Below, piece by piece: positions 21,132-36,483 of a stretch of 44,121 nt of DNA (positions are counted from its first letter, which is position 1; every line of letters starts with the position of its first letter). A program made the position numbers and the translations under genes. The notes beneath the pieces were generated by a model. That model did no database searches. It had not been told where the DNA came from and was given only the letters and a program-made list of their open reading frames with translations. The stretch comes from Acidimicrobiales bacterium (GTDB taxonomy: Bacteria > Actinomycetota > Acidimicrobiia > Acidimicrobiales > CADCSY01): NCBI GenBank assembly GCA_036275955.1, contig DASUCO010000094.1:1-44121 (forward strand), written 5' to 3'.

Positions 21132-21150
21132 GCACGGCCCGGAGGCGACG

Positions 21151-21182: not shown

Positions 21183-21204
21183 CTGCGCGTGCGCACCGGC
21201 CTGG

Positions 21205-22731
21205 TCAGGCCGGGGCGACGTCCTTGCGCCGGCGGGAGCCGACCTGCTTCGGGGCGGGCGCGACGACCGGCGCGTCGAGCACCCAGTGCTCCTCCACGGG
21301 GGCGCGCATCGCCTTGCGGTAGCGGTCCGGCGTCCACGGCCACAGCTCGGGCAGGCCGTCCTTGCCGAGGTACCAGCTGGTGCAGCCGCTGGCCCACACC
21401 GTGCCCGGCATCGCGGCGTTCATGGCGCGCTGGTGCTCCTCGTAGGCCTCCTGGCTCACCTCGACGGTGTCGAACTCCCCGGCCGCCCACCGCTCGATCC
21501 AGCCCGCGACGAAGGCCGCCTGGGACTCCGCGATGGCGGTGAGCGAGTAGTTGCCCACCGGGCTGTGCGGGCCCATCAGCATGAACAGGTTCGCCAGGCC
21601 GGGCACCGCGACGCCGTAGTAGGCCTTGGGGCCGTCGGCCCAGACGTCGTCGAGCGTGCGACCGCCGTCGCCGACCACCGACGCCGGTCGGATGAAGGCG
21701 TGGGCGTCGAAGCCGGTGGCGAGCACCAGGACGTCGAGGTCGTGCTCCTCGCCGTCGGCGGTGCGCACACCGGTGGGCGTGATCCGCTCGATGGCGTCGG
21801 TGACGACGTCGACGGTGTCGCGCTGCACGGCCTTGAAGTAGCCCGGCGACATCACCAGGCGGCGACAGCCCGGCTGGTAGTCCGGCGTCAGCTTGGCCCG
21901 CAGGTCCCGGTCGCGCACCATCGCGAGGCTGCTGCGGCACAGCAGCTCGATCGCGCGACGACGGACGCCGTCCTGCACCAACGCCTGGGCGAAGAGCTCC
22001 ATCGCGGTGCGGTAGGCCAGGTAGCCGCCGTGGTCGAGGGCGCTCAGGCGGCGGTGCGCCGCCTTCAGCAGCCGCGGGTAGGCGGGGTTGGGCAGGGTCA
22101 CCACCCAGTGCGGCGAGCGCTGGAAGACGCTCACCTTCGACGCCACCGTCGACAGCGCGGTCGTGATCTGCACGCCCGTGGAGCCGCTGCCGATGATGCC
22201 GACGCGCGCGCCCTCGAGGGGCACGTCGTGGTCCCACCGCGCCGAGTGGAACAGCGCGCCCTCGAACTCCTCGGCGCCCGCGATGTCGGGCACGTGCGGG
22301 TGGTGCAGCACCCCGGCGGCGCTGAGCACGAAGTCGGCACGCCACTCCCCACCCGCCGCGGTGCGCACGACCCACTCGCCGTCGACCCGCTCGATCGAGG
22401 TGACCTCCTGCCCGAAGCGCACGTGACGGCGCAGGTCGAGGTCGTCGGCGACCTTCTCGAAGTAGGCCGCGATCTCCGCCCCCGGCGAGAACAGGTGCGA
22501 CCAGTCGGGGTTGGTGGCGAACGTGAACTGGTAGAAGCGCGACGGCACGTCGCACGCCAGCCCGGGGTAGGTGTTGTCGCGCCAGGTGCCGCCGATGCTC
22601 CCGCGCTTCTCGAGCACGGTGATGTCGTCGACCCCGGCCTCGCGCAGGTAGTGCACGGCGCACAGGCCCGACATACCGGACCCGACGACGACGACGCGGG
22701 GCGAGCGCGGGCGGGCGGGGGTGGGGTGCAT
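21205..22731 (-). CDS. Flavin-dependent Baeyer-Villiger-type monooxygenase (second copy, no DUF4873 tail)
   Basis: ORF 21205..22761. Motifs: VVGSGMSGL, the fingerprint FEGALFHSARW and IIGSGSTG. ATG 22731 is preferred because GAAGGAGAAGACC precedes it. Confidence 0.85.
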   Translation of the reverse strand: MHPTPARPRSPRVVVVGSGMSGLCAVHYLREAGVDDITVLEKRGSIGGTWRDNTYPGLACDVPSRFYQFTFATNPDWSHLFSPGAEIAAYFEKVADDLDLRRHVRFGQEVTSIERVDGEWVVRTAAGGEWRADFVLSAAGVLHHPHVPDIAGAEEFEGALFHSARWDHDVPLEGARVGIIGSGSTGVQITTALSTVASKVSVFQRSPHWVVTLPNPAYPRLLKAAHRRLSALDHGGYLAYRTAMELFAQALVQDGVRRRAIELLCRSSLAMVRDRDLRAKLTPDYQPGCRRLVMSPGYFKAVQRDTVDVVTDAIERITPTGVRTADGEEHDLDVLVLATGFDAHAFIRPASVVGDGGRTLDDVWADGPKAYYGVAVPGLANLFMLMGPHSPVGNYSLTAIAESQAAFVAGWIERWAAGEFDTVEVSQEAYEEHQRAMNAAMPGTVWASGCTSWYLGKDGLPELWPWTPDRYRKAMRAPVEEHWVLDAPVVAPAPKQVGSRRRKDVAPA

Positions 22732-22774
22732 GGTCTTCTCCTTCGAAGCGGCTGAGGTCATCGTGCGACCGCCG

Positions 22775-24166
22775 TCACCGCGGACGGCGCACGGGCACCG
22801 TGTTCGGGCCGCGCAGCGACGGGTTGGTCGACCACGTCAGAGGGCCGGCGGGTTCGAGCGCCGGCACCTGGTCGAGCAGCGTGTCGAGGGCGATGCGCGC
22901 CTCCAGCCGGGCCAGGTGGGCACCCAGGCAGAAGTGCGGGCCGACGCCGAAGCCGAGCTGGCCGTTCGTCGTCCGGGTGGGGTCGAAGACGTCGGGGTCG
23001 GGGAAGCGGTCGGCGTCGCGATTGGCGGCGCCGAAGAAGAGCACCACCCGCGAACCGGCGGGGATCACGTGGCCGCCCACCTCGTAGGGCTCGAGGGCGA
23101 CGCGGCTCACCCACTGCAGCGGCGTCCCCCAGCGCAGGCCCTCCTCCACGAGGCCGGGCACCAGCGAACGGTCCTCGCGGACCCGGGCGTAGAGCTCCGG
23201 GTCGCGCGCGAGCTGGTCGCCCACGAGACCCAGCAGGTTCGTGGTGGTGTCGTTGCCCGCCACGATCAGCAGCATGACGAACAGGTAGGCGTGCATGCGG
23301 GTGATCTCGCCGTCGTCCACGCCCTGCTGCAGCACGGTCAGGACGTCGTCGCGGGGATCGCTGCGCCGGCGCAGCATCTCGGTGTGCACCAGGTCCTCGA
23401 GCTTGACCATCACCGGCACGGACCTGCCCAGCACGCTGAAGACCTCGAGGTAGGTGCGCGGCGAGAAGATCTTCGCGAGGTCGAGCGACCATGCGCGGAA
23501 GTCCTGCCAGCGCTCGTCGGGGATGCCGACGAGCTGGGCGATCATCATGATCGGCAGCGGCACCGCGAAGTCCCGCATCAGGTCGACGTCGGCGCCGTCG
23601 CGCACCTGCGCGGCCAGCGGGTCGACGATGCGTCGCACCTGGTCCTCGAGCTTGCGGACGATGCCGGGGCTGAACGACTTCGCCACTACCGTGCGCAGGC
23701 GGTGGTGCTCGGGCTCGTCGGTGGTGATCAGCGAGGGCACGCCCATCGAGCGCAGGAAGATGCCGTCGGCCGACGACAGCACGTCGTGGGCGCGGGCCGC
23801 CTCGTTGACGTGGTCGAAGCGGGTCAGCATCCACACGTCGAGGCGCTCGTTGACCGCCACGCCGGCCGACCGCAGGGCCGCGTAGGCGGGATAGGGATCG
23901 GCCACCGCAGCGGGCAGGGTCGGGTCGAAGGTGGTGCGCAGCACCGTGTCGGGGGCCTCGGCCACCGAGGCGCGGTAGGCGAGCTCCCGCCACATGTTGC
24001 GGACGACGAGCGGGCCGGACTGGCCGGCCAGGTATCCCAGTGACGACGCCATGCCGCGCGCGGTGCCCGACGGTCGCGTGCGGATCGGACGCGACGGGAC
24101 CTCTCGTGGGGAGGGCGGCGGATCCGACGGGGCCGGGGTCGGCGGCGTGGACGTGGCGGTGCTCAT
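22775..24166 (-). CDS. Cytochrome P450
   Basis: Inner part of ORF 22775..24448. Motifs: I-helix AGNDTT, ExxR (EEGLR) and the heme loop FGVGPHFCLGAHLAR. ATG 24166 forms an ATGA overlap with the SDR stop. The N-terminus is Pro/Ser/Thr-rich. Confidence 0.9.
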   Translation of the reverse strand: MSTATSTPPTPAPSDPPPSPREVPSRPIRTRPSGTARGMASSLGYLAGQSGPLVVRNMWRELAYRASVAEAPDTVLRTTFDPTLPAAVADPYPAYAALRSAGVAVNERLDVWMLTRFDHVNEAARAHDVLSSADGIFLRSMGVPSLITTDEPEHHRLRTVVAKSFSPGIVRKLEDQVRRIVDPLAAQVRDGADVDLMRDFAVPLPIMMIAQLVGIPDERWQDFRAWSLDLAKIFSPRTYLEVFSVLGRSVPVMVKLEDLVHTEMLRRRSDPRDDVLTVLQQGVDDGEITRMHAYLFVMLLIVAGNDTTTNLLGLVGDQLARDPELYARVREDRSLVPGLVEEGLRWGTPLQWVSRVALEPYEVGGHVIPAGSRVVLFFGAANRDADRFPDPDVFDPTRTTNGQLGFGVGPHFCLGAHLARLEARIALDTLLDQVPALEPAGPLTWSTNPSLRGPNTVPVRRPR

Positions 24167-25077
24167 GCGTTGCTCCGGGGTGCGGCGGTGGCGGGCGTCG
24201 ACGTCGCGTCCGAGGAGGCGGCGGGCGTGGGGGCGGCGGCGGCCGTGGGGAGGGCGGCGGGCGCCGCGGCGGCACCGGAGGTGAGGCCGGGGACCCGTGC
24301 GAGCACCGTGTCGAAGCGGGCGACGAGCGAGCGGAACTCGAGGGCGGGGCCGACCCAGCGCGGCGCCCACACCCGCGCCGAGCGACGCTCGAGACCCCGC
24401 ACGATGGCGGCGGCGGCGACCTCGACGGGAGCCGGGCTGAGGATCCACGGGACCTTCTCGGCCAGGGCGCCCAGCGGGGTGCCGCCGAGCAGGCCGTCGC
24501 GAGCGAGGCCGGTGTCGATGAGGCCGAAGAAGGCGACCCCGGCGCTCGCACCGGTGGGGGCGAGCTCGATGCGCAGGGAGCGGCCCAACGACTCGACACC
24601 GGCCTTGGCGGCGCCGTAGCCGGCGATGGTCGGGCAGGCGATGGCCGCGGCGAGGGACGCCACGAGCAGCACGTGCCCGCGCGAGCCGACGACGTGCGGC
24701 AGTGCGGCGTGCACGGTGCGCCAGACGCCGAGCAGGTCGACCTCGATGACCTTCTCCACGGCCTCCGGGTCGGCCTCCAGCAGCGGGGCGACCGGACCGG
24801 CGATGCCGGCGTTGGCGACGACCGAGTCGATGGGGCCCAGGTCGTGGGCGATGCGGGCGAAGACCTCGACCAGGCCCTCCCGGTCGGTGACGTCGGCCTC
24901 GTAGGCCCGCGCGCCGGCGACCAGGGCCGCCGCCGCCTCGGCGGCCGCCGCCCCGTCGCGGTCGACGACGGCGACCTTCGCCCCGCGCGCGTACAGCAGC
25001 CGGGTCGTCTCCCGCCCGATGCCCTTGCCTGCTCCGGTGACCACGACGACGCGGCCCTCCAACGATCGTGCCCTCAC
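24163..25077 (-). CDS. Short-chain dehydrogenase/reductase (SDR) with Ala/Pro-rich C-terminal tail
   Basis: ORF 24163..25209. Motifs: VTGAGKGIG, ANAG and YGAAK. GTG 25077 has GAGGAGG 5 nt upstream. The alternative start is ATG 25104. Confidence 0.8.
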   Translation of the reverse strand: MRARSLEGRVVVVTGAGKGIGRETTRLLYARGAKVAVVDRDGAAAAEAAAALVAGARAYEADVTDREGLVEVFARIAHDLGPIDSVVANAGIAGPVAPLLEADPEAVEKVIEVDLLGVWRTVHAALPHVVGSRGHVLLVASLAAAIACPTIAGYGAAKAGVESLGRSLRIELAPTGASAGVAFFGLIDTGLARDGLLGGTPLGALAEKVPWILSPAPVEVAAAAIVRGLERRSARVWAPRWVGPALEFRSLVARFDTVLARVPGLTSGAAAAPAALPTAAAAPTPAASSDATSTPATAAPRSNA

Positions 25078-25184
25078 GGCATCCTCCTCATTGAGTGCGT
25101 TCATCAGAGGATCGACCAGAGTCCGAGGCTTCGATAGGGCAGGAGCGACGATCTGTCGCCGAGATTTTGTGGGAAACTCCAAGA

Positions 25185-26420
25185 GTGGTCGTCTCTGCGT
25201 CATCGTCACCCCGCCTGCCCGAGCCGCGGCCGCACCTGCTGCCGTGGCTGGAGATCCTCGAGGAGCCCGCCACCCTCGACGCGCTCAGCCACCAGGTCCT
25301 CCAGGCCCTCGCCGGCTCGACCGCCTGGCTCGATCTCTCGCTGCAGCGGGAGGTCGCCGAGCTCTTCCGCGCGTCGGCCCACAGCCTCGGGCCGATCCTC
25401 GCGGGCACGGCCACCGGCTTCCAGCCTCCCCGCGAGGCGCTGCGCCTCGGCCGCCGCATGGCCCGTCTGGGGCTCGGCGTCGGCGAGATCCTGACCGCCT
25501 TCGGCGACATGCGCCAGCAGATCTCCGACCTCGTCGCCACCGTGCTCGCCCTCCTCGACGTGCCCGCCGACCAGCAGCTGAGGCTCGCCCTCGAGGCCCA
25601 TCAGCTGGTGATGTGGTGGCTCGACGCCATCCAGCTCGCCGTGCTCGCCGAGCACGGGCTGGAGCGCGACTCCCTCACCCAGGCCACGCAGCGTCGACGC
25701 CAGGAGCTCGTGCACGGGGTGCTCGACGGCACCCACGGCGACACCGACGAAGCAAGTCGGCACCTCGGCTACAACCTGCGCGGCTCCCACACCGCCGTCG
25801 TCGCGTGGGCGAGCGACCAGCCGGACGACGACGGGAGCATCGCCGACTACCTGCGCCGGCTGCACCCGCGGGGCGGGACGGCGGCCCTCGTGCTCGAGGG
25901 GCCCGGCAGCGAGACTCGTGCCTGGCTCCCGGCCGTCGGATCGACCGACCTGTTCACCGCCCACCCTCCGCCGCCCGGCGTGGTGGTCGCGGTCGGCAAC
26001 GGCCTGCGCGGGCCGGGGGGGTTCCGGCTCTCCCACCGCCAGGCGCAGGCGGCTCGAGACCTGGCCCCGCGGCTGCGCGGCCGGCCGTCCGTCGTCCGCT
26101 ACGCCGAGTACGACGTGCTCGCCCACCTGGCCGCCGGCGATCCCGAGACGCTGGTCGCGCTCGCCACCACCGAGCTCGGCGAACTCGGCGCCGACACCCC
26201 CGCCGCCGAGCGCCTTCGCGAGAGCCTGGCCGCCTACTTCGCCCACTCCCAGCGCATCGGGCCGGCCGCGGAGACACTCGCCGTGCACCCGAACACGCTG
26301 CGCTACCGGCTGCAGCTGGCGGAGGCCGCCATCGGCCGACCGCTCGGGGAGGCACGGCTGCGCCTCGAACTGGCCCTGCTGGTGCACCGCGACCTCGCAC
26401 CACCGCCGGACCATCAGTGA
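25185..26420 (+). CDS. PucR/CdaR-type transcriptional regulator
   Basis: ORF 25095..26420. The C-terminal HTH is AAETLAVHPNTLRYRLQLAEAAIGRPL. The start is uncertain. GTG 25185 was chosen because it avoids overlap with the divergent SDR gene. TTG 25167 and the track start 25095 are alternatives. Confidence 0.7.
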   Translation: MVVSASSSPRLPEPRPHLLPWLEILEEPATLDALSHQVLQALAGSTAWLDLSLQREVAELFRASAHSLGPILAGTATGFQPPREALRLGRRMARLGLGVGEILTAFGDMRQQISDLVATVLALLDVPADQQLRLALEAHQLVMWWLDAIQLAVLAEHGLERDSLTQATQRRRQELVHGVLDGTHGDTDEASRHLGYNLRGSHTAVVAWASDQPDDDGSIADYLRRLHPRGGTAALVLEGPGSETRAWLPAVGSTDLFTAHPPPPGVVVAVGNGLRGPGGFRLSHRQAQAARDLAPRLRGRPSVVRYAEYDVLAHLAAGDPETLVALATTELGELGADTPAAERLRESLAAYFAHSQRIGPAAETLAVHPNTLRYRLQLAEAAIGRPLGEARLRLELALLVHRDLAPPPDHQ

Positions 26421-26462
26421 CCGGTGCCGGCCGACGGCCGGGACAGCGGTTCGGTGCGCGAT

Positions 26463-26480
26463 ACTATGGTTTCACCCCTA
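26463..26480. promoter_or_regulatory. Candidate TetR operator / -10 region upstream of the TetR gene
   Basis: ACTATGG-tttcac-CCCTA sits in an AT-richer patch 66 nt upstream of GTG 26546. It matches 13 of 18 positions of ACTATGG-cttact-CCATA at 29675-29692. TACTAT (26462-26467) could serve as a -10. Confidence 0.4.
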
Positions 26481-26545
26481 GAAGGGCCGGGCCGCACGAT
26501 CACGCTCCGACGTCGCGAGACGACCGCCGAGCAGGGAGGGCACGC

Positions 26546-27121
26546 GTGCCACGAACGAGCGACACGAAGTCGAGGATGACGCGTCACGCGATCGCCCTGC
26601 TCCAGGAGCGCGGCGTCAACGGCGTCACCATCGACGCTGTGCTGGCGGCGAGCGCCGCCCCCCGAGGGTCGGTCTACCACCACTTTCCCGGGGGCCGCGC
26701 CGAGCTGGTGCACGAGGCCGCGCGGGCCTCGGCAACCACGATGACCGACTTCATCCGGCATGGCGCGCAGGCGCCGCTGCAGCGACTGATCGACGACTTC
26801 GTGGACCTGTGGCGCCAGGCCCTCCTGCGCAGCGACTTCCGGGCCGGCTGCCCGATCGCGTCCCTCATCGCCGAGACGGCCGACGAACTGCGCGCCAGCG
26901 TCGACCTCGCCGCACGCACCTTCGACGAGTGGATCGACCTCCTGCGCGACGCCCAGATCGCCCAGGGCTGCGATCCCGACGAGGCCACCGGCCGGAGCGT
27001 GCTGACCGTGGCCGCCGTCGAGGGCGCGATCACCCTGTGCCGGGCGCGTCGTTCGATCGATCCGCTCGAACTCGTCGCCGCTCAGCTGCACCGCCTCGCG
27101 GACATCCCCGAAGGCCGCTGA
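26546..27121 (+). CDS. TetR/AcrR family transcriptional regulator
   Basis: Last 191 aa of ORF 25019..27121. HTH region: TIDAVLAASAAPRGSVYHHFPGGRAEL. GGGAGGG lies 5 nt upstream of GTG 26546. Confidence 0.85.
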   Translation: MPRTSDTKSRMTRHAIALLQERGVNGVTIDAVLAASAAPRGSVYHHFPGGRAELVHEAARASATTMTDFIRHGAQAPLQRLIDDFVDLWRQALLRSDFRAGCPIASLIAETADELRASVDLAARTFDEWIDLLRDAQIAQGCDPDEATGRSVLTVAAVEGAITLCRARRSIDPLELVAAQLHRLADIPEGR

Positions 27122-27150
27122 CCCGCCCCTGACCCCGCGTCGGCTCGGGC

Positions 27151-29667
27151 TCATGCCCGGTCGGGGGCCGGCTCCACTCGGGCCGGCACGTGCTTGTGCC
27201 ACGGCGAGCCGAAGTGGTGATCGACGTCCTCGGCGGAGGTCAGCTCGTTGAGCGCCACGCCGACGACGCCGGTGTCGGGGTGGTGCACCCCCATGCCGTT
27301 GGGAAGGGAGACGTGCCCGGGCTGCATCATCTCAGTGATCTCGACCGGCGCCACCGCGGAGCCGGCACGCGTGGTGACCCGCGCCGGGGCGCCCGCCTCG
27401 AGGCCGAGACGCCGGGCGTCGTCGGGGTTCATCCTCAGCGCGCCCTCCGGGTCGCGGCGGCGCCAACGGGGATCGCGGATGATCACGTTGGCCGTGAACG
27501 AGCGCCGCTCGCCGGCAGAGAGGACGAACGGGAACTCCGGTGACGTGTGCTCGTGCGCGATCGCGTCGAACCCCTTCAACTCCTCCAGCAGCTCGGGGAT
27601 GACGAGGTCGAAGCGGCCTCCGGGAGTGCGCACGTAGTCCCAGGCGGCCTCGTACGGGTCGTCGGTGAACACGACTCCCTCGCCCGTGGCGAGCAGCGCG
27701 TCGAAGAGCGCGTCGCCACGGCGGAAGCCTCGAGCGGTGAAGCCGGCGCGGGTGACGGCGTCCCGGTGGGCGATGGCCGCGAGGTGGCACAGGCCCCAGG
27801 CGGTCGCCGTCGCCTCGCGACCGAGGCCGAGCTCGGCACCCAGGGTGCGGTGCAGCAGGTAGGGCGTGAGCCCACGCAGGTCGGAGCGCGCCCGCACCGT
27901 GGCGAAGAACGCGAGGGCGAAGCTCGCCCGGCCCACCCGCGCGGCGGCGCGCAGGTCGGCGAGGACGCCCGAGGGTACGGCCTCGAGTCGGTCGAGGATC
28001 TCGGCGTAGATCCAGGGTTCGTCGCGGGTCCCCGCCAACGCCGGCATCAAGGGACGACGCAGCTGCGCCGTGTTGTGCGGGAAGTGAAGGGTGAACAGCG
28101 AGAGCTCCCACTTCTCGAACTGGCTGCTGGCCGGGAGCACATAGTCGGCGCAGCGTGCCGTCTCGGTCATGGCGACATCGATCACGACGCTGAGCTCGAG
28201 GGCCTCGAAGGCCTGACGGAAGCGCGCCGAGCCCGGCAGGGAGTGCACGGGGTTCGACGCCTCGACCCACAGGGCCCGCACGCGGTCGGGGTGGTCGGTG
28301 AGGATCTCGTCGGGCAGGGCGGCGGCGGGCATCATGCCGGCGAGCACGCGGGCCCCTGACACGGCGGTGCGCTCGGGCAGGTGCTCGAGCGAGAGGACGT
28401 CGGCGAGCTCCTGCGCGAGGGGGACGCCGACGGAGTCGAAGAAGGCGTCGAGCGCCGCCGCGGCCGCGACCTCGGTGGCGGCGCGCAGCGGACCGCGCGC
28501 GAGCGCAGCGACGGCGCGGCGCAGCGGCGCGGCGCCCAGGCGCATCAGGGGCATCGCGACGGCACCGATCGCGGCTCGGTGCGCACCACGGTCATCCCCG
28601 CCCGTGGCGTGCCAGCGGCCCGCGAGCGGGAAGAGCCACGAGTGCATGCTCATCCCGCCGGGCTTGGCGTAGTGGCCGCCCAGGATCCACAGCATCTTCA
28701 GCACGTAGGAGTTGAGCGTGCTGTTCGGTGCCTGCTGGATGCCGAGGTCCTCGTAGGTGGCGACGCTGCCCGACGTGCCGATGCGCCGGGCGGCCGTACG
28801 CAGCAGGGTCTCGTCGACGCCGCAGACGGCGGCGCAGCGCTCGACATCGACGCCGGCGTAGAAGCCGAGGAGCTGCTCGGCGCCCCTCGTGTGGCGCTCG
28901 AGCCAGGCGTGGTCGACCAGGTCCTCCTGCACCAGCACGGCGACCAGACCGACGAGGCACCACAGATCGGTGCCGGGGCGCACCCGCAGGTGGATGTCGG
29001 CCATCGCGGCGGTCTCGGACAGGCGAGGGTCGATCACGATCATCGACCGCTCCGGGTCGCGCGCGATCTCGCGCAGCGTCACCCGCGCCCGCGCCACACC
29101 GTGCGACTGCCAGGGGTTCTTGCCGATGAAGACCGAGACCTCGGCCCGTTCGAAGTCGCCGACGGTGTGGCTGCCGTAGAGCCGGGCGTCGACGTAGGCC
29201 TCGCCCGTCTTCTCCTGGGCGAGGGCGTTGGAGTAGCGCGTGACGCCGAGGTGGTTCATCAGGCTCCGCGCGTGGGAGCCGCCGAGGTGGTTGCCCTGCC
29301 CCCCGCCGCCGTAGAAGGCGACCGAGGCGCCACCGTGCTCGGCCCGCAGCGCCGCGAGTCGCGCGGCGATCTCGTCGAGTGCCGTGTCCCAGCCGATCGG
29401 CTCGTAGGTGCCGTCGGGGCGACGCCGCATCGGCGTGTCGAGCCGGTGGGCGCCGTTCTGGTAGCGATCGAGCCGCAGCGGCTTCTCGCAGGTGTAGCCC
29501 TGCGACGCCGGATGGCGCTGGTCGCCGCGGATCTTCGCGAGGCGCCCGTCCTCGACGGCCACCTCGAGACCGCAGTTGCACTCGCAGAGGATGCACGCGG
29601 TCTGCTGCCACACCGGCTCGTCACGCTCGCCCGCCGGTCGGTGGTCGCTGGTCGTCCGCACATCCAT
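27151..29667 (-). CDS. Molybdopterin-dependent oxidoreductase (MopB superfamily, BisC/formate-dehydrogenase-like)
   Basis: ORF 27151..29676. It has an N-terminal FeS Cys cluster (ACILCECNCG...GYTCEKP) and is about 840 aa long. ATG 29667 was chosen (CATAGT + 7 nt). GTG 29676 is the alternative. Confidence 0.85.
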   Translation of the reverse strand: MDVRTTSDHRPAGERDEPVWQQTACILCECNCGLEVAVEDGRLAKIRGDQRHPASQGYTCEKPLRLDRYQNGAHRLDTPMRRRPDGTYEPIGWDTALDEIAARLAALRAEHGGASVAFYGGGGQGNHLGGSHARSLMNHLGVTRYSNALAQEKTGEAYVDARLYGSHTVGDFERAEVSVFIGKNPWQSHGVARARVTLREIARDPERSMIVIDPRLSETAAMADIHLRVRPGTDLWCLVGLVAVLVQEDLVDHAWLERHTRGAEQLLGFYAGVDVERCAAVCGVDETLLRTAARRIGTSGSVATYEDLGIQQAPNSTLNSYVLKMLWILGGHYAKPGGMSMHSWLFPLAGRWHATGGDDRGAHRAAIGAVAMPLMRLGAAPLRRAVAALARGPLRAATEVAAAAALDAFFDSVGVPLAQELADVLSLEHLPERTAVSGARVLAGMMPAAALPDEILTDHPDRVRALWVEASNPVHSLPGSARFRQAFEALELSVVIDVAMTETARCADYVLPASSQFEKWELSLFTLHFPHNTAQLRRPLMPALAGTRDEPWIYAEILDRLEAVPSGVLADLRAAARVGRASFALAFFATVRARSDLRGLTPYLLHRTLGAELGLGREATATAWGLCHLAAIAHRDAVTRAGFTARGFRRGDALFDALLATGEGVVFTDDPYEAAWDYVRTPGGRFDLVIPELLEELKGFDAIAHEHTSPEFPFVLSAGERRSFTANVIIRDPRWRRRDPEGALRMNPDDARRLGLEAGAPARVTTRAGSAVAPVEITEMMQPGHVSLPNGMGVHHPDTGVVGVALNELTSAEDVDHHFGSPWHKHVPARVEPAPDRA

Positions 29668-29674
29668 GGCAAGC

Positions 29675-29692
29675 ACTATGGCTTACTCCATA
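29675..29692. promoter_or_regulatory. Candidate TetR operator overlapping the promoter/start of the Mo-oxidoreductase
   Basis: Inverted repeat TATGG(29677-29681)-N6-CCATA(29688-29692) within ACTATGGCTTACTCCATA. A related site lies at 26463-26480. Confidence 0.4.
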
Positions 29693-29769
29693 CCATTCCT
29701 CAACCGATCGCGCGGTCGGCGCCGTTCGCCGACGCCTCCGAGGCACGGCGCGCCTCGCGGCGGCCTGGC

Positions 29770-29880
29770 TCAGATCCGGCCGGCGGGCGGCGCCTCGAGC
29801 AGGACGTCGGGCACGTGGCGGGCGGTCGTGGTCGCGCGCCCGGCGCATCCCGTCGCGACGCCGTCGGCTGGAGCAGCACC
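29770..29880 (-). pseudogene. Decayed relic of the 3' end of prfC (direct repeat of 34918..~35040)
   Basis: 29770-29840 aligns without gaps to 34918-34988 (the prfC stop plus its last codons), with 60 of 71 positions identical by hand count. Minus-strand translation gives RATTTARHVPDVLLEAPPAGRI* against prfC RATKTARDLPDVLLEALPAGGG*. Homology continues with indels to about 29880. Confidence 0.7.
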
Positions 29881-29972
29881 ACCCACACAAGTGCGCGGCC
29901 GCGTGAGGTCGCGACGTCGATCGATAGCGGAGCCGAGAGGACGGGCGCCGCAGCGCCCTACGATGGGCGCCG

Positions 29973-30635
29973 ATGCCCTCCCGCCGTCCCCGCGCCTGCG
30001 ACCCGTCCGGCCCCGAACCCCGTGTCTACGCGGGGCTCTCGGCGCGCGAGCGCGACGCCGAGCGGCGCCAGCGGTTGCTGGACGCGGCCCTCCGGCTCTT
30101 CGGGACGGCGGGCTACGCAGCCACGTCGGCCGACCGCGTGTGCACGGCGGCGAAGGTCTCGACGCGGCACTACTACCAGCTCTACGCCAACAAGGAGGAC
30201 CTGCTCCTCGACCTCTACGCCTCGATCACGCAGGCGTCGATGGAGCTGGTCGCCGCCTCGTTGGAGGCGACGCTCGACGAGCATTTCAGCGTGCGGCTGA
30301 CCGCGGCGATCCGCGCCTACCTCGGGCCGATCCTCGAGGACCCGCGGGTCGCGCGGATCGCCTTCGTCGAGGTGGTCGGGGTCAGCCCCCGGGTCGAGGC
30401 CCGCCGCCTGGAGTTCCGCAACGCCATCGTCGCCCTCGTCGAGGCCGAGGGCGCGCGGGCCGTCGAGCGCGGCGAGCTGGGCCCGCGCGACTTCCGCTTC
30501 CTGGCCCTGTGCTTCAACGGCGCGACGAACGTCGTCGTGCAGGACTGGGGCATCGACGGCGGCGGCGGCGCGGCCGAGACCCTGCAGGACGACCTGTGCC
30601 GGGTGGCGCTGCGACTCTTCGGCGCCGACGCCTGA
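29973..30635 (+). CDS. TetR/AcrR family transcriptional regulator
   Basis: ORF 29973..30635. HTH region: TSADRVCTAAKVSTRHYYQLYANKEDLL. TACGAT lies 8 nt upstream of the ATG. Confidence 0.8.
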   Translation: MPSRRPRACDPSGPEPRVYAGLSARERDAERRQRLLDAALRLFGTAGYAATSADRVCTAAKVSTRHYYQLYANKEDLLLDLYASITQASMELVAASLEATLDEHFSVRLTAAIRAYLGPILEDPRVARIAFVEVVGVSPRVEARRLEFRNAIVALVEAEGARAVERGELGPRDFRFLALCFNGATNVVVQDWGIDGGGGAAETLQDDLCRVALRLFGADA

Positions 30636-30654
30636 CCCCGGCCGCCGACGACCC

Positions 30655-30683
30655 TTGCCAGGACGCAGCGGGCGGCTTACGTT
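30655..30683 (+). promoter_or_regulatory. Sigma-70-like promoter giving a leaderless FG-GAP mRNA
   Basis: TTGCCA (30655-30660), a 17-nt spacer, TACGTT (30678-30683), then 6 nt to ATG 30690. No SD is present. Confidence 0.45.
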
Positions 30684-30689
30684 CTCCCC

Positions 30690-31829
30690 ATGCGAAACGT
30701 GCGTCTTTCACTTGTGGTCGCTGTCGCCCTCGCGCTGGCGTCCGCACCCGCCGGGGCGGCGACGCCGTGGTTCGGCCCGCGCATCGACTCCGCGATCGCC
30801 AACTCGGCGGGCCCCGGACCGGCCCCGCGGGGCGCGGCGAGCGGCGACGTGGACGGCGACGGCCGCCCCGACCTGGTCTCGATCGGCGACGTCACGTTCG
30901 GCGACCTGCGCGTCTCGCGCGGCCTGGGCGACGGCCGGTTCGCTGCCGCCACGACGATCGCCGGGTCGCGTCAGACCCAGGGCCTCGACGTCGGCGACGT
31001 CACGGGCGACGGTCGGTCCGACGTCGTCGCGATGAGCACCTCGGAGGTGAAGGTCTTCGCCAACGACGGCACCGGCGCCTTCGCCCTGCGCGACACCCGG
31101 CCCCTCACGCTGGGCGGCCAGGTGCAGCCGCTGCTCGTCGACCTCGACGGCGACGGCGACCTCGACGTCGTGGCGCCCACGTTCACCGCCATCCAGACGC
31201 TCCTCAACGACGGCACCGGCCGGTTCGCGAACGGCCCCACCACGCAGATCGCCGGCGCCGCCGTGCTGTCGGCGATCACCGTCGCCCACCTCGATACGGG
31301 CCGCACCCCCGACCTGTTCGCCGTCGACGGCTTCTCCGGCGCGACCTTCGCGCTCACCGGCGACGGCGACGGCACCTTCACCAAGCGGGGGACGCTCCAC
31401 GCCACCTCGTTCGTGCCCGAGGACGTCGCCGCGATCGACCTCGACGGCGACGGCTTCGACGACGCCGCGGTGGTCGGCTCCTTCAGCTTCTCCCTCACCA
31501 CGGGGCTGACCGACGGCACCGGCCGCTTCACCCGCACCACCGGCAACGCCTACCAGTACGGCGGACCCGGACCGACGAGCGCCGCGGTGGTCGACCTCGA
31601 CGGCGACGGCCGCGACGACCTCGCCGTCTCCTCGCTCGCCGATCCCACCGCCGGCACGATCACGGTGTTCGCGGGCAACGGCACCGCGAAGCCCACGAGG
31701 GTCGGCACCGTCGCCACCGCCCGCTTCCCGCAGAACCCCGTGCCGGCCGACTACGACGGCGACGGCGACACCGACCTCGCGGTCGTGGCACCGGGCACGA
31801 TCTCGTTCCTCCCGAACACCGCCTCGTGA
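30690..31829 (+). CDS. Secreted FG-GAP/VCBS-repeat (integrin-alpha-like beta-propeller) protein
   Basis: ORF 30690..31829. It has a signal peptide (LVVAVALALASAPAGA-AT). Ca-binding-type DxDGDGxxD motifs recur (DVDGDGRPD, DLDGDGDLD, DLDGDGFDD, DLDGDGRDD, DYDGDGDTD), together with related variants (DVTGDGRSD, TGDGDGTF). Confidence 0.85.
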   Translation: MRNVRLSLVVAVALALASAPAGAATPWFGPRIDSAIANSAGPGPAPRGAASGDVDGDGRPDLVSIGDVTFGDLRVSRGLGDGRFAAATTIAGSRQTQGLDVGDVTGDGRSDVVAMSTSEVKVFANDGTGAFALRDTRPLTLGGQVQPLLVDLDGDGDLDVVAPTFTAIQTLLNDGTGRFANGPTTQIAGAAVLSAITVAHLDTGRTPDLFAVDGFSGATFALTGDGDGTFTKRGTLHATSFVPEDVAAIDLDGDGFDDAAVVGSFSFSLTTGLTDGTGRFTRTTGNAYQYGGPGPTSAAVVDLDGDGRDDLAVSSLADPTAGTITVFAGNGTAKPTRVGTVATARFPQNPVPADYDGDGDTDLAVVAPGTISFLPNTAS

Positions 31830-31840
31830 ACGGAACACCG

Positions 31841-33082
31841 ATGCTGCGCAACCGTGTGGCCCGCACCGTCGGCGCCGTCGCGGTGGCGCTGGGCCTGGTG
31901 GTCACCGCCGCCGCGGCCCCGGCGCTCTCCGCCGCACCGCCGATCCCCGAGGACGACCCGTTCTTCGCGGCCCCCGCCGACCTCGCGGCGCTCGCGCCCG
32001 GGCAGGTGGTCAGGTCGCGACCGGTGACGATCAAGGCGTTCGAGCTGCCCGTGCCCGCCGACGCCTGGCAGCTGGTCTACCGCACCTCCGACCGCCTCGG
32101 CCGGCCGACCGTCACGGGGACGACGGTCATCGTGCCGCGCACCCCGTGGCGGGGTCGCGGCCCCCGTCCGCTCGTGTCCTACCAGACCGCCGAGGACGGC
32201 GTCTCGACCCGCTGCGCGCCGTCGTACGCACTGACGGCTGGCGTCGCTGGAGGCTTCACGGGCTCGTACTCCGAGGCGCCGGTGCTGCTCGGGCCGCTGT
32301 CGCTCGGCTGGGCGCTGAGCGTGCCCGACTACGAGGGCATGGCCTCGCAGTTCCTGGTCGCGGACGTGGCCGCGAAGGCGGTGCTCGACGGCGTCCGGGC
32401 GGCGCGGAGCTTCGCCCCGGCGGCGCTCGCGTCGTCGCCGGTCGCGCTGTGGGGCTACTCGGGCGGCGCCTTCGCCAGCGCCAACGCCGCGCAGCTGCAG
32501 GCCTCCTACGCCCCGGAGCTGCCGATGCGCGGGGTGGCGCTGGGCGGGCTGCTGGGCAGCGTGCGAGCCACCATCGACGCCTTCGACGGCAGCATCGCCG
32601 GCAGCGCGGTGCCGATGGGCGTGCACGGTCTCGCGCGCTCCTACCCGGAGCTCGACCTGCCGCAGTACCTCAACGACCTGGGCCGCGACCTGTACGCGGC
32701 CACCGCCGCCGACTGCCTCTTCGACGCCGCGGCACGGCGCCCGTTCCTGCGGGTCTCGCAGATCACCCGGGTGCCGCAGCCGTTCGACGTCCCGGCGGTG
32801 GCGGCGATGCTGCGGGCGAACTCCCCGCAGTTCCGGCCGGGGGCGCCGACCGCGCCGGTGTACGAGTACCACACGCTGCTCGACGAGTTCGCGCCCATCG
32901 GGCCGGCGCGCGCGACGCTGCGCAACTACTGCGCGGCCGGCACCCCGGTGCAGCACGCCACCAAGCTGCTCGGTGAGCACCTCACCGAGATCGTCGCGGG
33001 CATCCCGGGGGCGTTGGCGTTCCTGTCGGCCCGTTTCGCCGGTCGCGCGCCGGTCGACGGCTGCGCGGGGCTGCGGCGATGA
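31841..33082 (+). CDS. Secretory lipase (LIP family) with signal peptide
   Basis: Last 413 aa of ORF 29576..33082. It has a signal peptide (AVAVALGLVVTAAAAPALSA), the nucleophile elbow GYSGGA, and the overall look of the LIP family. Confidence 0.8.
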   Translation: MLRNRVARTVGAVAVALGLVVTAAAAPALSAAPPIPEDDPFFAAPADLAALAPGQVVRSRPVTIKAFELPVPADAWQLVYRTSDRLGRPTVTGTTVIVPRTPWRGRGPRPLVSYQTAEDGVSTRCAPSYALTAGVAGGFTGSYSEAPVLLGPLSLGWALSVPDYEGMASQFLVADVAAKAVLDGVRAARSFAPAALASSPVALWGYSGGAFASANAAQLQASYAPELPMRGVALGGLLGSVRATIDAFDGSIAGSAVPMGVHGLARSYPELDLPQYLNDLGRDLYAATAADCLFDAAARRPFLRVSQITRVPQPFDVPAVAAMLRANSPQFRPGAPTAPVYEYHTLLDEFAPIGPARATLRNYCAAGTPVQHATKLLGEHLTEIVAGIPGALAFLSARFAGRAPVDGCAGLRR

Positions 33083-34770
33083 GGCGGGGGTGGGTGCCCG
33101 CGGTGGCGCTCGGCGTCCTCGGGCCGCTCCTTGCCGGCGCGCTGGTCGCTCCGTCGTCCGCGGCGGCGCGCACGTGGTACGTCCGTTCCGGCGCGGACAG
33201 CGGCACCGGCACGTCGTCCGCGCCCTTCTCGAGCCTCGCCCTCGTCGAGAGCGCCAGCCGGCCGGGCGACACCATCGTCGTGCTCGCGGGCGCGGTGCCG
33301 CTCGACGGCGGCATCGCCTTGAAGCCGGGCCAGACGCTGCGCGGCGTCGGCGATCCGGCACCGACGCTGACCAACACCACGCCGCGACTGGACGGCGACG
33401 CGGTGCGCCTCGCCGACGCGACCACCGTGGCCGACCTGCGCTTCTCCGGCACGCGCCGCGGCGCGGTCTACGGCCTCGACGTCACAGGGGTGCGGGTGAG
33501 CCGCACCGAGGTGACGGGGCACAACACCTCGTGCACGCCGGGCTTCCTGATCCCCGCCTTCAACGCTCCGACGAACCTGCCGGGCGTGGGTGTACCGATC
33601 GCGACCGGCCTGCAGAACGGGTGGGCGGGCATCCAGATCGATGCCGCGTCGCGCCGGGGGTTCACGGCCCGCATCGATCACAACCGGGTGCACGACGCCG
33701 ACTGCGGCGACGGCATCGACGTCCGCGTGTGGGGGGACGCCGATGGCACGGTGGCGATCACGGACAACGCGATCGCCTCGCTGCGCCAGGGGCCCGGGTT
33801 CATGTCGCTGCTCGCGATCGGCCTCCAGGTGCGCGACCGGGCGCGGCTCGTGGCCGGCGTCCACCGCAACACCCAGGAGCTGCTCGGCCAGCCGCGCGAC
33901 GTCGACTTCGCCGCGCACGGCGCCGACTCCGAGGGCGTCTTCCTCAACGCCGTCGGGCCCGCGTCGCTCGACGCCGTCGTCACCGGCAACCGGTACACCA
34001 ACACCTTCGGCTGGGGCGGTTTCTCGGCCAACGGCCTGGAGATGGTGTCGATGGGTTCGGGCGCGCGGATGCGGGCCGTCGTGCGCGACAGCAGCTTCTC
34101 GGGCGCACCGGGCGACCTCATCGAGCACGGCGCCCTGGGCACCGACGCGGTCATGGACATGACGCTGGAGCGGGTCACCGCCGAACGCTCGACCGGCGTC
34201 GGCAACACCTACCTGCTGCCCTTCAACAACGGCGACTGCGTGCTGGCCGGCAGCCTCGGCGCTCGCAACACGGTGACGCTCACCGTGCGCCGCAGCGTGC
34301 TGCGCGACTGCTCCAACAACGGGCTGTCGCTGGGCAGCAACGTGGTCAACGGCAGCGGCGCGACGACCGCGCTGGCGGCGTCCGTCAGCGACTCGGTGAT
34401 CACCGGCAACCGGGGCGCGAACGTCGGCGTCCGCAACTTCACCGGCCTCGGCTCGCTGTCCTTGCGCATCGAGCGCACCGACCTCAGCCGCAGCGGCGGT
34501 CTCGGCTCGGGCGTCGCGGCCTTCTCGGCCGAGGACTTCGGCAGCACCGGCACCAGCACGGTCGACATCGGCGGCGGTCGGCTCGGCAGCCGCGGCGGCA
34601 ACTGCCTGTCCGGCGGCCTGCTGCTGGCCGACGCCGTGCGGTACCCGGTCAGCGCCCGCGGCAACTGGTGGGGCGCCCCGGGCGGACCCGGCCCCCTGCG
34701 CACCCTTGCCCTCGGCGCCGCCCTCGACACCACCGCACCCCTCGCCGCACCCCCTCCCGCCTGCCGCTGA
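33079..34770 (+). CDS. Secreted right-handed parallel beta-helix repeat protein
   Basis: ORF 33079..34770. It forms an ATGA overlap with the lipase stop and has a signal peptide (LLAGALVAPSSAAA-RT). Gly/Asn/Ser/Val-rich segments recur, e.g. ITDNAI, VTGNRY, ITGNRG and NNGLSLGSN. Confidence 0.7.
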   Translation: MRRGWVPAVALGVLGPLLAGALVAPSSAAARTWYVRSGADSGTGTSSAPFSSLALVESASRPGDTIVVLAGAVPLDGGIALKPGQTLRGVGDPAPTLTNTTPRLDGDAVRLADATTVADLRFSGTRRGAVYGLDVTGVRVSRTEVTGHNTSCTPGFLIPAFNAPTNLPGVGVPIATGLQNGWAGIQIDAASRRGFTARIDHNRVHDADCGDGIDVRVWGDADGTVAITDNAIASLRQGPGFMSLLAIGLQVRDRARLVAGVHRNTQELLGQPRDVDFAAHGADSEGVFLNAVGPASLDAVVTGNRYTNTFGWGGFSANGLEMVSMGSGARMRAVVRDSSFSGAPGDLIEHGALGTDAVMDMTLERVTAERSTGVGNTYLLPFNNGDCVLAGSLGARNTVTLTVRRSVLRDCSNNGLSLGSNVVNGSGATTALAASVSDSVITGNRGANVGVRNFTGLGSLSLRIERTDLSRSGGLGSGVAAFSAEDFGSTGTSTVDIGGGRLGSRGGNCLSGGLLLADAVRYPVSARGNWWGAPGGPGPLRTLALGAALDTTAPLAAPPPACR

Positions 34771-34795
34771 CGCCGGCGGGCCCTCGACGTACGAA

Positions 34796-34850
34796 GCCCC
34801 CAGCACAACGGTCGTCCTCGCGGCTGGAAGGCGACGGTTCGGCTGGGGGC
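34796..34850. terminator. Long imperfect hairpin between convergent beta-helix gene and prfC
   Basis: GCCCCCAGC (34796-34804) pairs with GCTGGGGGC (34842-34850). There is partial inner pairing (AAC.GTCG.CCT with AGG.CGAC.GTT). Confidence 0.45.
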
Positions 34851-34917
34851 GTCGAGCGACGGCGTCGAACGAGGAGCGGCGACGACGGACGACGGCGGGG
34901 CGCGCGCCGGGTGCGCC

Positions 34918-36483
34918 TCATCCGCCGCCGGCGGGCAGGGCCTCGAGCAGGACGTCGGGCAGGTCGCGGGCGGTCTTGGTGGCGCGCCATTGGTCGACGA
35001 ACAGCGCGAGGTGGGTGCCGTCGCTGCGCTGGAGCACCTCGACGCCGCGCACCCCCGCGAGCGCCGCCGCGCCCTCGGCGTCCGTGCGTCGAGCGACCTG
35101 GTAGTCGAGCCGGGAGAAGCGGATGGGGGCGTTGAACTCGTTGACCATGCGGTCCTCGACGACCTCGAACTGCATGGGCCCGACGGCGGCGAGCACGGGG
35201 TTCTGGTCGCCGCGCAGGTCCGAACGCAGCACCTGGACGACGCCCTCCTGGTCGAGCTGCTCGATGCCGCGGCGGAACTGCTTGTAGCGGCTGATGTCGC
35301 CCGCGCTGGCGGTCATGAAGTGCTCGGGGGCGAAGGTGGGCACCGGCGGGTACTCGATGGGATCGCCGACGTACACGGTGTCGCCGACGCGCAGCGCGGT
35401 GGCGTTGACGAGGCCGATGATGTCGCCGGCCTCGGCGGTCTCGACCGACGTGGTCTCGCGGCCGAACACGGCCTGGGCGAACTTCGTGGCGAACGGGCGA
35501 CCGGTGCCGGCGTGGGTGACGACCATGCCGCGTTCGAAGGTGCCCGACACGACGCGGGCGTAGGCGAGGCGGTCGCGGTGGGCGGTGTTCATGCCCGACT
35601 GCACCTTGAACACGAAGGCGCTGAACTCGTCGCCGACCTCGCGGATGCCGCCGTCGACGCCCTCGGTAGCGCTCGGCGCGGGGGCGAGCTCGAGCAGCAG
35701 GTCGAGCAGTTGGGCGACGCCGAAGTTCTGCAGCGCCGAGGCGAACATGACCGGCGTCGTCTCGCCGGCGAGGAAGCGCTCCTGGTCGTGGTCGGCCTCG
35801 TCGAGACCGAGCAGCTCGTGCTCCTCGACCGCGGCCGCCCAGGGCAGGGCGTCGACGTCCTCGACCTCGCCGGGGCCCATGCGGCGCTCGGGCGCCCGCG
35901 TGGCGCCGCCGGCGGTGCGGGTGTACTTGACGAACTCGCCCGTGCGGCGGTCGAGGACGCCGCGGAAGTCGCCGGCCTCGCCCACCGGCCAGGTCAGCGG
36001 CGTGGGCCGCAGCCCGATCTTCTCCTGGATGCGGTCCATCAGCTCGAGCGCCGACAGGCCGGGGCGGTCCCACTTGTTGATGACGGTGATGACCGGGATG
36101 CCGCGCAGCGCGCAGACCCGGAAGAGCTTCAACGTCTGCGGCTCGAGCCCCTTGCCGGCGTCGACGAGCATGACGGCGGAGTCGACGGCCGAGAGCACGC
36201 GGTAGGTGTCCTCGGAGAAGTCGCTGTGGCCGGGGGTGTCGACCAGGTTGACCACGTGGTCGCGGTAGGCGAACTGCAGCGCCGCGGAGGTGATCGAGAT
36301 GCCGCGGGCCTTCTCCATCGCCATCCAGTCCGACACCGTCGCGCGCCGGTCGCCCTTGCCGTGCACGGCGCCCGCCTCGTTGATGGCGCGCGCGTGCAGG
36401 GCCAGCGCCTCCGTCAGGGTCGACTTGCCGGCGTCCGGGTGGCTGATGACGGCGAAGGTACGGCGAGGACGGGTGTCGGGCAC
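34918..36483 (-). CDS. prfC: Peptide chain release factor 3
   Basis: ORF 34918..36483. GTPase motifs: SHPDAGKST, DTPGH and NKWD. Full-length RF3-like sequence. GTG start with TAGGTT 6 nt upstream. Confidence 0.95.
   Translation of the reverse strand: MPDTRPRRTFAVISHPDAGKSTLTEALALHARAINEAGAVHGKGDRRATVSDWMAMEKARGISITSAALQFAYRDHVVNLVDTPGHSDFSEDTYRVLSAVDSAVMLVDAGKGLEPQTLKLFRVCALRGIPVITVINKWDRPGLSALELMDRIQEKIGLRPTPLTWPVGEAGDFRGVLDRRTGEFVKYTRTAGGATRAPERRMGPGEVEDVDALPWAAAVEEHELLGLDEADHDQERFLAGETTPVMFASALQNFGVAQLLDLLLELAPAPSATEGVDGGIREVGDEFSAFVFKVQSGMNTAHRDRLAYARVVSGTFERGMVVTHAGTGRPFATKFAQAVFGRETTSVETAEAGDIIGLVNATALRVGDTVYVGDPIEYPPVPTFAPEHFMTASAGDISRYKQFRRGIEQLDQEGVVQVLRSDLRGDQNPVLAAVGPMQFEVVEDRMVNEFNAPIRFSRLDYQVARRTDAEGAAALAGVRGVEVLQRSDGTHLALFVDQWRATKTARDLPDVLLEALPAGGG

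Follow-up and report, generated by a model that had tools for sequence, protein, structure and literature searches.

A decayed copy of the prfC 3' end, 5.1 kb from the intact gene: possible scar of an old insertion in an actinobacterial contig

Why does the end of a translation gene occur twice on one contig, once as part of the working gene and once on its own, beside a molybdopterin oxidoreductase gene? The window considered here, that is the whole 44,121-nt stretch of DNA that was analysed (contig DASUCO010000094.1), contains an intact prfC gene and an orphan sequence resembling the terminus of that gene, with an operon enclosed between the two. The features that define the repeat are the following, in window coordinates:

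34918..36483, minus strand: prfC, peptide chain release factor 3, intact, 521 codons (Pfam GTP_EFTU, EF-G_D2 and RF3_C)
34918..34988, minus strand: functional prfC 3' end, the partner of the relic, within the prfC open reading frame and encoding the consensus C-terminus
29770..29840, minus strand: orphan prfC relic, last 23 codons and stop, with a robust core at 29779-29840 (alignment, profile match, second assembly)
29792..29813, identical to 34940-34961, no strand assigned: 22-nt exact run, the longest in the repeat (ungapped match string)
29841..29940, minus strand: possible further decayed prfC sequence with several indels, uncertain (gapped score 26)

Aligned without gaps, 29770-29840 and 34918-34988 share 60 identities in 71 positions, and 56 in 62 over the inner stretch (29779-29840 versus 34927-34988); the counts, coordinates and common orientation given in the initial annotation were all reproduced. 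A repeat search returned a 62-nt pair with 90% identity, in direct orientation and spaced by 5148 bp; no other two-copy family in the region is both long and of high identity. The direct repeat corresponds exactly to the terminal 23 codons of prfC, with the 22-nt identical run as its core. The two copies align in register and in frame with the stop codon at the same position, the minus-strand translations being RATTTARHVPDVLLEAPPAGRI for the relic and RATKTARDLPDVLLEALPAGGG for prfC.

The similarity is well above chance when measured against shuffled sequence, as the initial annotation had proposed to do. Compared with the rest of the window, the 3'-terminal 150 nt of prfC reach a best local score of 44, against 14.6 +/- 1.3 (maximum 19) in 200 dinucleotide shuffles, which places the match about 22 standard deviations above the null. 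In the same test no 3' end among the window's other 38 genes scores above 18, and none of them has a second copy. A DNA profile of 390 positions, made solely from the prfC 3' ends of 80 other species, finds its best non-self match in the window at 29779-29840 (model positions 323-384; 12.1 bits, E 0.001), the best chance matches in 1.6 Mb of relatives' DNA reaching 11.1 bits. The proposed continuation of the similarity, with indels, to about 29880 gave a mixed result: none of 500 shuffles equals the gapped score of 29841-29940 and p lies between 0.004 and 0.025 against real window segments, but the profile reaches no further than about 29860 and does not recover this stretch. The conserved HLALFVDQW codons are unrecognisable there, and a prfC-like continuation towards 29880-29940 is only suggestive. 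On the other side of the repeat, beyond the stop codon, the similarity between the copies is not significant when tested alone, and the DNA past either stop finds no match downstream of the prfC genes of relatives.

The two copies differ sharply in their state of preservation. The complete gene is full length with all its domains, its tail reads ...LEALPAGGG*, and the C-terminus ...ARDLPDVLLEALPAGGG* is the family consensus and the same as that of the closest relative (L010). It shares 93-94% amino acid and 90.5% nucleotide identity with the prfC of Nocardioides. A mosaic test along the gene left the nearest relative unchanged at the 3' end and detected no recombination breakpoint. The relic does not look like coding sequence: its GC content by codon position is 0.80/0.75/0.80, and its differences from prfC are spread evenly over the three positions (4/3/4). 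It carries D->H, L->P and G->R changes at near-invariant sites, with states found there in between zero and three of 81 functional prfC copies. Both the even spread and the rare states are to be expected of a displaced, unselected end, and the changes at invariant sites show that the relic is not a fragment of another organism's working prfC. Conversely, two rare states are common to the relic and the prfC of the local lineage, the T in RAT and the xTG before PDV, from which it follows that the relic derives from the clade's own prfC and not from an unrelated sequence. The residual similarity amounts to about 85-90% over about 70 nt and has a sharp inner edge. The repeat and its junctions gave no Rfam match above noise and no consensus promoter or terminator, and their predicted folds are at the level of shuffles.

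The enclosed block and its neighbours comprise:

27151..29676, minus strand: molybdopterin oxidoreductase (Pfam), which would directly follow prfC without the 5148-bp unit
29973..30635, plus strand: TetR-family regulator, the first gene of the operon (Pfam TetR_N and TetR_C_24)
30690..31829, plus strand: secreted FG-GAP repeat protein (Pfam FG-GAP_3 and FG-GAP)
31841..33082, plus strand: secretory lipase (Pfam PF03583 LIP, E 2.9e-52)
33079..34770, plus strand: secreted right-handed beta-helix-like protein (homologue names, faint PF13229)
34785..34861, no strand assigned: long, imperfect hairpin where the beta-helix gene and prfC converge, lying between their stops (inverted repeat I4, arms of 35 nt, 74% complementary)

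The gene content agrees with what had been read from the sequence, a TetR gene followed by three signal-peptide genes: Pfam identifies the regulator, and the FG-GAP, lipase and beta-helix proteins all have signal-peptide-like N-termini. The lipase and beta-helix genes have 4 nt in common, and in P0059 and P0080 homologues of the beta-helix gene are fused to the LIP domain. The relic's stop lies 93 nt upstream of the oxidoreductase start, matching the figure of about 90 nt that had been given for the distance from prfC without the block. The hairpin is seen in predicted folds with an energy no better than that of shuffles; it is probably a bidirectional terminator.

Nothing in the block points to foreign origin or past mobility. 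As had been noted, no integrase, transposase or tRNA lies between the repeats, and this holds window-wide: Pfam assigned no integrase, resolvase or transposase to the four block genes or to 25 further genes of the window, and the 44-kb contig has no tyrosine or serine recombinase, transposase, relaxase or tRNA. The initial annotation had looked to composition and to a donor lineage for signs of acquisition, and neither bears it out. Codon usage of the block (z -0.6 to +0.35) and tetranucleotide usage (r 0.984) are indistinguishable from those of the flanks, and composition is uniform across the contig. A pattern scan of IMG/VR returned no match to the prfC 3' end or the block; plasmids searched with the block yielded just weak similarity to the lipase gene on Rhodococcus megaplasmids. 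With the prfC end as query, phages and plasmids gave true prfC genes or chance matches only, so that no carrier emerged.

The operon itself is ordinary. The TetR, FG-GAP, lipase and beta-helix genes form a conserved chromosomal operon of Nocardioides, with about 72% nucleotide identity confined to the coding parts; a TetR homologue is likewise first in the matching operon of other Nocardioides, and the FG-GAP gene is present in that of N. antri, L090 and L094 and missing from that of WS12/Root682. In five lineages the operon occupies five different chromosomal contexts, every other lineage examined having it at another site, so that in one or more of them its position is not the ancestral one. 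The five other loci lie in ordinary chromosomal surroundings, with no flanking repeats and no recombinase neighbours.

The prfC locus of relatives was surveyed in 80 Nocardioidaceae genomes with 10-kb flanks. None of the window's other 38 genes lies within 10 kb on either side of prfC in these loci, the oxidoreductase and the operon both being missing from this distance, and the neighbourhood of prfC is rearranged in nearly every species. The best non-self protein matches are 71% for the beta-helix protein, 67% for the oxidoreductase and 92% for prfC, and protein searches found no same-species sequences except short Logan contigs from that same sample; no relative close enough to reveal an empty site, with prfC directly before the oxidoreductase, came to light. 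When every called gene was screened for motifs, 0 of the 80 genomes had a recombinase motif less than 10 kb from prfC, and the Pfam families with at least two members among 101 proteins encoded by the first two genes downstream of prfC included no integrase. No comparable orphan or second prfC end was found in the 80 relatives by self-BLAST or by a profile search of 1.59 Mb. A recurrent linkage of prfC with the beta-helix gene was considered and rejected, the sole other case (L098) being a different arrangement with unrelated intervening genes.

How, then, did the layout come about? We tentatively favour, at a little under an even chance, an old insertion into the prfC 3' end in which the gene was kept intact by duplication of its last 23 codons. 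DNA carrying the TetR / FG-GAP / lipase / beta-helix operon would have recombined inside the last ~23 codons of prfC; had the incoming molecule borne a sequence like the prfC end, a complete end would have stayed fused to the gene, which thereby remained functional, while the other end would have been stranded 5148 bp away beside the oxidoreductase gene and would then have decayed as non-coding DNA. We infer that the layout was produced by insertion and not by loss, and the choice of one of the two prfC ends as the incoming one is equally tentative. The geometry would be that of attL and attR after integration into the 3' end of a gene, as with e14 in icd, and a site-specific recombinase may have catalysed the event. 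Reading the repeats as att sites is plausible, and for a site-specific event the 22-nt run would be the candidate core of the crossover, although it could equally be the best-kept part of a decayed duplicate. The recombinase and the backbone that arrived with the block would since have been lost, so that the block would now be a fixed, immobile part of the chromosome, comparable to a remnant of the CIME kind. The earlier suggestion of an attL/attR-like footprint around an acquired island thus fares unevenly: the direct repeat, intact prfC, decayed orphan copy and location of the operon elsewhere in other lineages speak for it, but the native composition, the ordinary Nocardioides operon, the lack of repeats or recombinases at the other loci and the want of a phage or plasmid carrier do not.

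Several known systems offer comparisons. The e14 cryptic prophage of E. coli K-12 is inserted in the 3' end of icd, leaving a complete icd and a displaced icdC pseudogene, and recombination between the copies would yield a chimeric C-terminus, according to PMC13626634 (citing Hill et al. 1989). The resemblance comprises an insert in the 3' end of a housekeeping gene, a complete gene end and a C-terminal fragment in direct orientation at the far side. In contrast to the prfC block, which has no recombinase or phage genes and consists of a 5.1-kb ordinary operon instead of a prophage, e14 keeps its integrase and excises on SOS induction; moreover the orphan prfC copy, at 85-90% identity and with non-conservative changes, is far more decayed than icdC. 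Cis-mobilizable elements (CIMEs), such as the ICESt1/ICESt3-type remnants, share the geometry and are integrase-less (PMC5704250). The prfC block likewise keeps both att-like repeats and has no integration or transfer genes, an agreement that is structural only, whereas CIMEs are recognised via att sites that they have in common with live ICEs or IMEs of matching specificity, and no element with specificity for the prfC 3' end was found in the 80 relatives, IMG/VR, phages or plasmids. Given their divergence, the prfC repeats may no longer be recombination substrates. If this reading holds, the scar would be real but ordinary, of a kind already known from e14/icd and the CIMEs. SXT/R391 ICEs integrate in prfC of Gammaproteobacteria with preservation of prfC function (PMC4344509, PMC4489591), but they use the 5' end, Int_SXT and a conjugative backbone of ~100 kb, whereas here the 3' end is concerned, in an actinobacterium and with no int or tra genes; beyond the gene name there is no relation. 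Actinobacterial AICEs and tRNA-gene islands integrate into the 3' end of a gene and thereby produce a short direct repeat of it (PMC3218068, PMC3429521). AICEs are equipped with int, rep and a transfer gene of the FtsK/SpoIIIE type and are nearly always in tRNA genes, in contrast to this window, which has neither int, rep or FtsK/SpoIIIE domains nor a tRNA.

The same layout is predicted by a route that needs no recombinase, in which the operon, lying beside a prfC 3' segment and coming from a related bacterium or from circularised DNA of the cell's own, entered by homologous recombination. A Campbell-type single crossover or homology-facilitated illegitimate recombination would duplicate the homologous stretch without att site or integrase, and would directly explain the missing integrase, the native composition and the ordinary Nocardioides operon as cargo. 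Both copies resemble prfC of the same clade, and the 85-91% identity of prfC DNA across the genus offers ample homology for recombination. The robust duplicate is nevertheless short, with its sharp inner edge, and 62-71 nt is little for a RecA-dependent crossover when the sequences have diverged, and more in keeping with att-site homology; none of the 80 relatives has the operon beside prfC, so none offers a donor arrangement, and prfC shows no breakpoint. We therefore regard this route as possible but rather doubtful. We hold it unlikely that the relic is what remains of a second prfC gene, a segmental duplicate or acquired allele by the oxidoreductase that was deleted to its last ~70-170 nt, the operon never having inserted into prfC at all. 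The 10-15% divergence suits a long independent decay, the patchy, indel-rich continuation to about 29940 could belong to such a gene, and the readiness with which prfC neighbourhoods rearrange would accommodate it; yet the profile search backs the terminal 62 nt only, and no Nocardioidaceae locus examined holds two or partial prfC copies. Direct duplicates a few kb apart are usually lost through recombination and not eroded from one end, which also weighs against a remnant of this sort.

That the pair reflects chance similarity or a metagenome assembly artefact, for example a chimera joined at a k-mer conserved in prfC, is very improbable. Admittedly the contig comes from a metagenome-assembled genome and is probably mis-binned, and the profile score is barely above the best chance score; against chance stand the pairwise score, far over that of every other gene end, and the conservation of register, frame and stop position. 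An independent Logan assembly of run SRR25158179 has 24191-31168 at 100% identity, which takes in the relic with the junctions on its two sides, and it reproduces 31139-34951 as well. Its contig ends at 34951, inside the conserved core, leaving the join from operon to prfC body outside independent coverage, a point in favour of an artefact; the relic's changes at invariant sites, which set it apart from a piece of another organism's working prfC, and the uniform composition of the contig count against one.

It is conceivable, though we consider it quite improbable, that the prfC 3' end serves as attachment site for actinobacterial integrative elements of a family not yet described and that the operon is a cassette moved between chromosomal sites. 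If true, this would explain why the operon has a different place in each Nocardioides lineage, and the window would keep the only visible att-flanked copy of it. A recombinase specific for the prfC 3' end in Nocardioidaceae, of which the present data give no sign, would if found provide a new attB for actinobacterial genetics. On present evidence alone the term genomic island is not warranted for the block, and 29770-29840 should be annotated as a prfC pseudogene fragment. Understood as the old insertion that we tentatively favour, the locus would show cleanly that an important translation gene can tolerate an insertion when its last codons are duplicated. It would also illustrate the state of such a scar once decay has gone on for long: the inner edge is sharp and mobility genes are lacking.

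The 3' end of prfC occurs twice in the window, once in the working gene and once as an orphan copy of its last 23 codons, termed here the relic, and the two copies enclose a block of four genes.

Features of the prfC region
27151-29676, minus strand: molybdopterin oxidoreductase
Spacer of 93 nt between oxidoreductase and relic
29770-29840, minus strand: relic, with a possible decayed tail to ~29940
29973-30635, plus strand: TetR
30690-31829, plus strand: FG-GAP protein
31841-33082, plus strand: secretory lipase (LIP)
33079-34770, plus strand: beta-helix protein, overlapping the lipase gene by 4 nt (ATGA, 33079-33082)
Gap of 147 nt between beta-helix gene and prfC, with a long hairpin at 34785-34861
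34918-36483, minus strand: prfC

Ungapped pairing of 29770-29840 with 34918-34988 gives 60 identities in 71 positions, the number counted by hand in the initial annotation, and on the minus strand the relic reads RATTTARHVPDVLLEAPPAGRI* and prfC RATKTARDLPDVLLEALPAGGG*. A repeat search recovered 62 nt of this pair (29779-29840 and 34927-34988; 90% identity, spacing 5148) as the only long two-copy family of the region above ~71% identity; the longest exact run between the copies is 22 nt (29792-29813 = 34940-34961). The statistical alignment proposed as a check of this similarity upholds it: the relic provides the best local score (44) for the 3' 150 nt of prfC against the remaining window, compared to 14.6 +/- 1.3 (maximum 19) in 200 dinucleotide shuffles and at most 18 for the window's remaining 38 genes when their 3' ends are scored identically. 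The similarity, in DNA of 74% G+C, is far beyond chance. A DNA profile derived from the prfC ends of 80 other species, without the window's own, finds its best non-self match in the window at 29779-29840, which falls on model positions 323-384 of 390 and is thus in register with the end of the real gene. For the further claim that similarity continues with indels, the gapped score is 26 (p 0.004-0.025 against real window segments) but the profile does not recover it, and a decayed prfC-like tail reaching ~29940 is only suggestive. Beyond the stop codon the similarity has no significance of its own. Two Rhodococcus ruber plasmids carry a 'transposase family protein' gene that matches the repeat core (34926-34971) over 46 nt at 83% (E 5e-3 in 7.3 Gb), which we judge to be a chance likeness of GC-rich coding DNA.

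The relic frame is not coding-like. Its GC content by codon position is 0.80/0.75/0.80 compared to ~0.73/0.5/0.95 in real genes, and its 11 differences from prfC in 69 coding nt are spread 4/3/4 over codon positions 1/2/3; between the window prfC and its closest orthologue, 77% of differences are at third positions. Four relic states (D->H, L->P, G->R and one in the last codon) are found in 0-3 of 81 functional prfC copies. The relic and the window prfC have in common two rare states, Thr in R-A-T (3/80 relatives) and xTG before P-D-V (2/80), and since these are shared with the prfC of this lineage the relic is a decayed prfC end from the same clade. It has diverged by ~10-15%, comparable with what each lineage has accumulated in synonymous divergence since parting from the nearest sequenced species (the window prfC and that of L010, its closest relative, differ at 22% of third positions), which makes the event about as old as a species split.

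An independent Logan assembly (run SRR25158179) contains two contigs that match the window at 100%; the window is itself one complete contig (44,121 nt) from an NCBI MAG that bears the label Acidimicrobiales. The first (24191-31168) spans the oxidoreductase, relic and TetR gene, and thus reproduces the relic and both its junctions; the second (31139-34951) stops part-way through the core that is conserved in the prfC copy, and the join between operon and prfC body is supported by the MAG assembly alone. The break of this contig, L081, at 34951 inside the conserved prfC 3' core likely stems from a k-mer common to several prfC alleles of Nocardioides type present in the sample, but could instead reflect population heterogeneity at the operon-prfC junction. 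Although deposited in a MAG named 'Acidimicrobiales bacterium', the contig carries a prfC with 93-94% aa (90.5% nt) identity to Nocardioides, and all the nearest homologues of the operon come from Nocardioides or Aeromicrobium; judged by these affinities, the contig is probably mis-binned Nocardioidaceae sequence.

By sequence comparison the four genes of the block are a conserved Nocardioides operon. Strain WS12, Root682 and relatives carry TetR-LIP-beta-helix with an MFS transporter on one side and a two-component system on the other. The four-gene form including FG-GAP has as its two neighbours, in N. antri, peptidase/kinase genes and a RelA/SpoT gene; in another MAG, an SDR/TetR pair and a PAS-GGDEF gene; and in a JGI contig, a nitrilase-family gene and small genes of unknown function. 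Across Nocardioidaceae the chromosomal surroundings of this secreted-protein operon change from lineage to lineage (L082-L086, L089, L090, L094, L103), and the FG-GAP gene occurs in some lineages but not in others. The 72% nucleotide homology of these loci to the window is confined to its coding part (30039-34764), and neither flanking direct repeats nor recombinase neighbours were found at the other operon loci examined. In some relatives lipase and beta-helix are fused into one 951-977-aa protein with a LIP domain (P0059, P0080), which suggests that the two proteins act together. The foreign composition that might be expected of an acquired island did not materialise, as codon usage of the block (z -0.58 to +0.35) is like that of the contig and its tetranucleotide profile (r 0.984) lies within the 0.981-0.993 found elsewhere on it. 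No copy of the block occurs in the plasmid and phage collections searched. The initial annotation saw no integrase, transposase or tRNA between the repeats. No tRNA gene occurs in the window, and Pfam detects no integrase, resolvase or transposase in 29 of the 39 called genes (every one from 14118 rightwards); the proteins it finds all have metabolic or regulatory roles. These include a lipid/steroid-type catabolic cluster at 14118-24052 (acyl-CoA dehydrogenase, SDRs, MaoC-type hydratase, thiolase, flavin monooxygenase, P450 and an AraC-type regulator).

Our comparative set comprised 80 Nocardioidaceae prfC loci with 10-kb flanks. The DNA following the prfC stop is different in nearly every species, none of the window's other 38 genes is found near prfC, and no tyrosine or serine recombinase motif occurs within 10 kb of it. 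The families listed for 101 proteins of the first two downstream genes, which take in all families matched by at least three proteins and some matched by two, include no integrase; SelO is the commonest (8/101, a pooled count over all loci). Directly past the prfC stop (~11560-11700 in the coordinates of the fetched loci) at least seven loci (L009, L014, L018, L031, L042, L049, L052) carry CGCGTATCGTCGA, followed by a conserved downstream gene. A degenerate prfC-end pattern had no match in IMG/VR. L010 (90.5% nt) is the nearest relative along the whole of prfC, 3' end included, and nothing marks that end as imported; the window prfC and L010 share the working tail KTARDLP...GGG*. By protein search the closest genomes reach 67-71% for flanking and block genes and 92% for prfC. 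One distant relative (L098:852-5746; 52% aa in prfC, 55% aa in beta-helix) likewise carries a beta-helix homologue within 1.7 kb of prfC, in a different orientation and with a MerR regulator and a methyltransferase in between, probably a coincidence.

The intact prfC, the in-register, directly oriented orphan of its last 23 codons and the location of the operon elsewhere in other lineages are best accounted for by DNA that inserted long ago into the 3' end of prfC, whereby a prfC-end-like sequence on this incoming DNA would have recombined with the chromosomal prfC end. We favour this explanation tentatively. The insertion itself we infer from the layout; catalysis by a site-specific recombinase would be its weakest step, and the possible support for it (integrase, foreign composition, sister elements, empty site) was in every case negative or uninformative. 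Entry without a recombinase, by homologous or homology-facilitated illegitimate recombination, accounts for the same layout and for the native character of the block, and is the less likely alternative. Less probable again is that the relic is the remnant of a second prfC copy; at none of the 80 Nocardioidaceae loci does the prfC end occur twice. A chance likeness or an artefact is highly improbable. The relic's substitutions at sites invariant in working prfC show that it is no fragment of another organism's gene brought in by mis-assembly.

The layout has the geometry known from e14 in icd, where icdC is the fragment (PMC13626634), and from CIME remnants that lack an integrase (PMC5704250). 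With the defining recombinase missing and no sister element found, the block is not assignable to an element family. SXT/R391 elements use the 5' end of prfC, as the initial annotation had pointed out in contrast to the 3'-end repeat here, and with Int_SXT and gammaproteobacterial hosts have only the gene name in common with the block; all AICE hallmarks are absent from it. An undescribed prfC-3'-specific element family shuttling the TetR/FG-GAP/LIP/beta-helix operon would be moderately interesting, and is improbable. Scars of this kind are known already; the present one would not surprise a specialist and opens no long-standing question. Recombination of the two copies in the 22-nt core would give a prfC tail ...LEAPPAGRI* without the conserved LPAGG; selection would probably act against such a loss of the block, which may help to keep it fixed.
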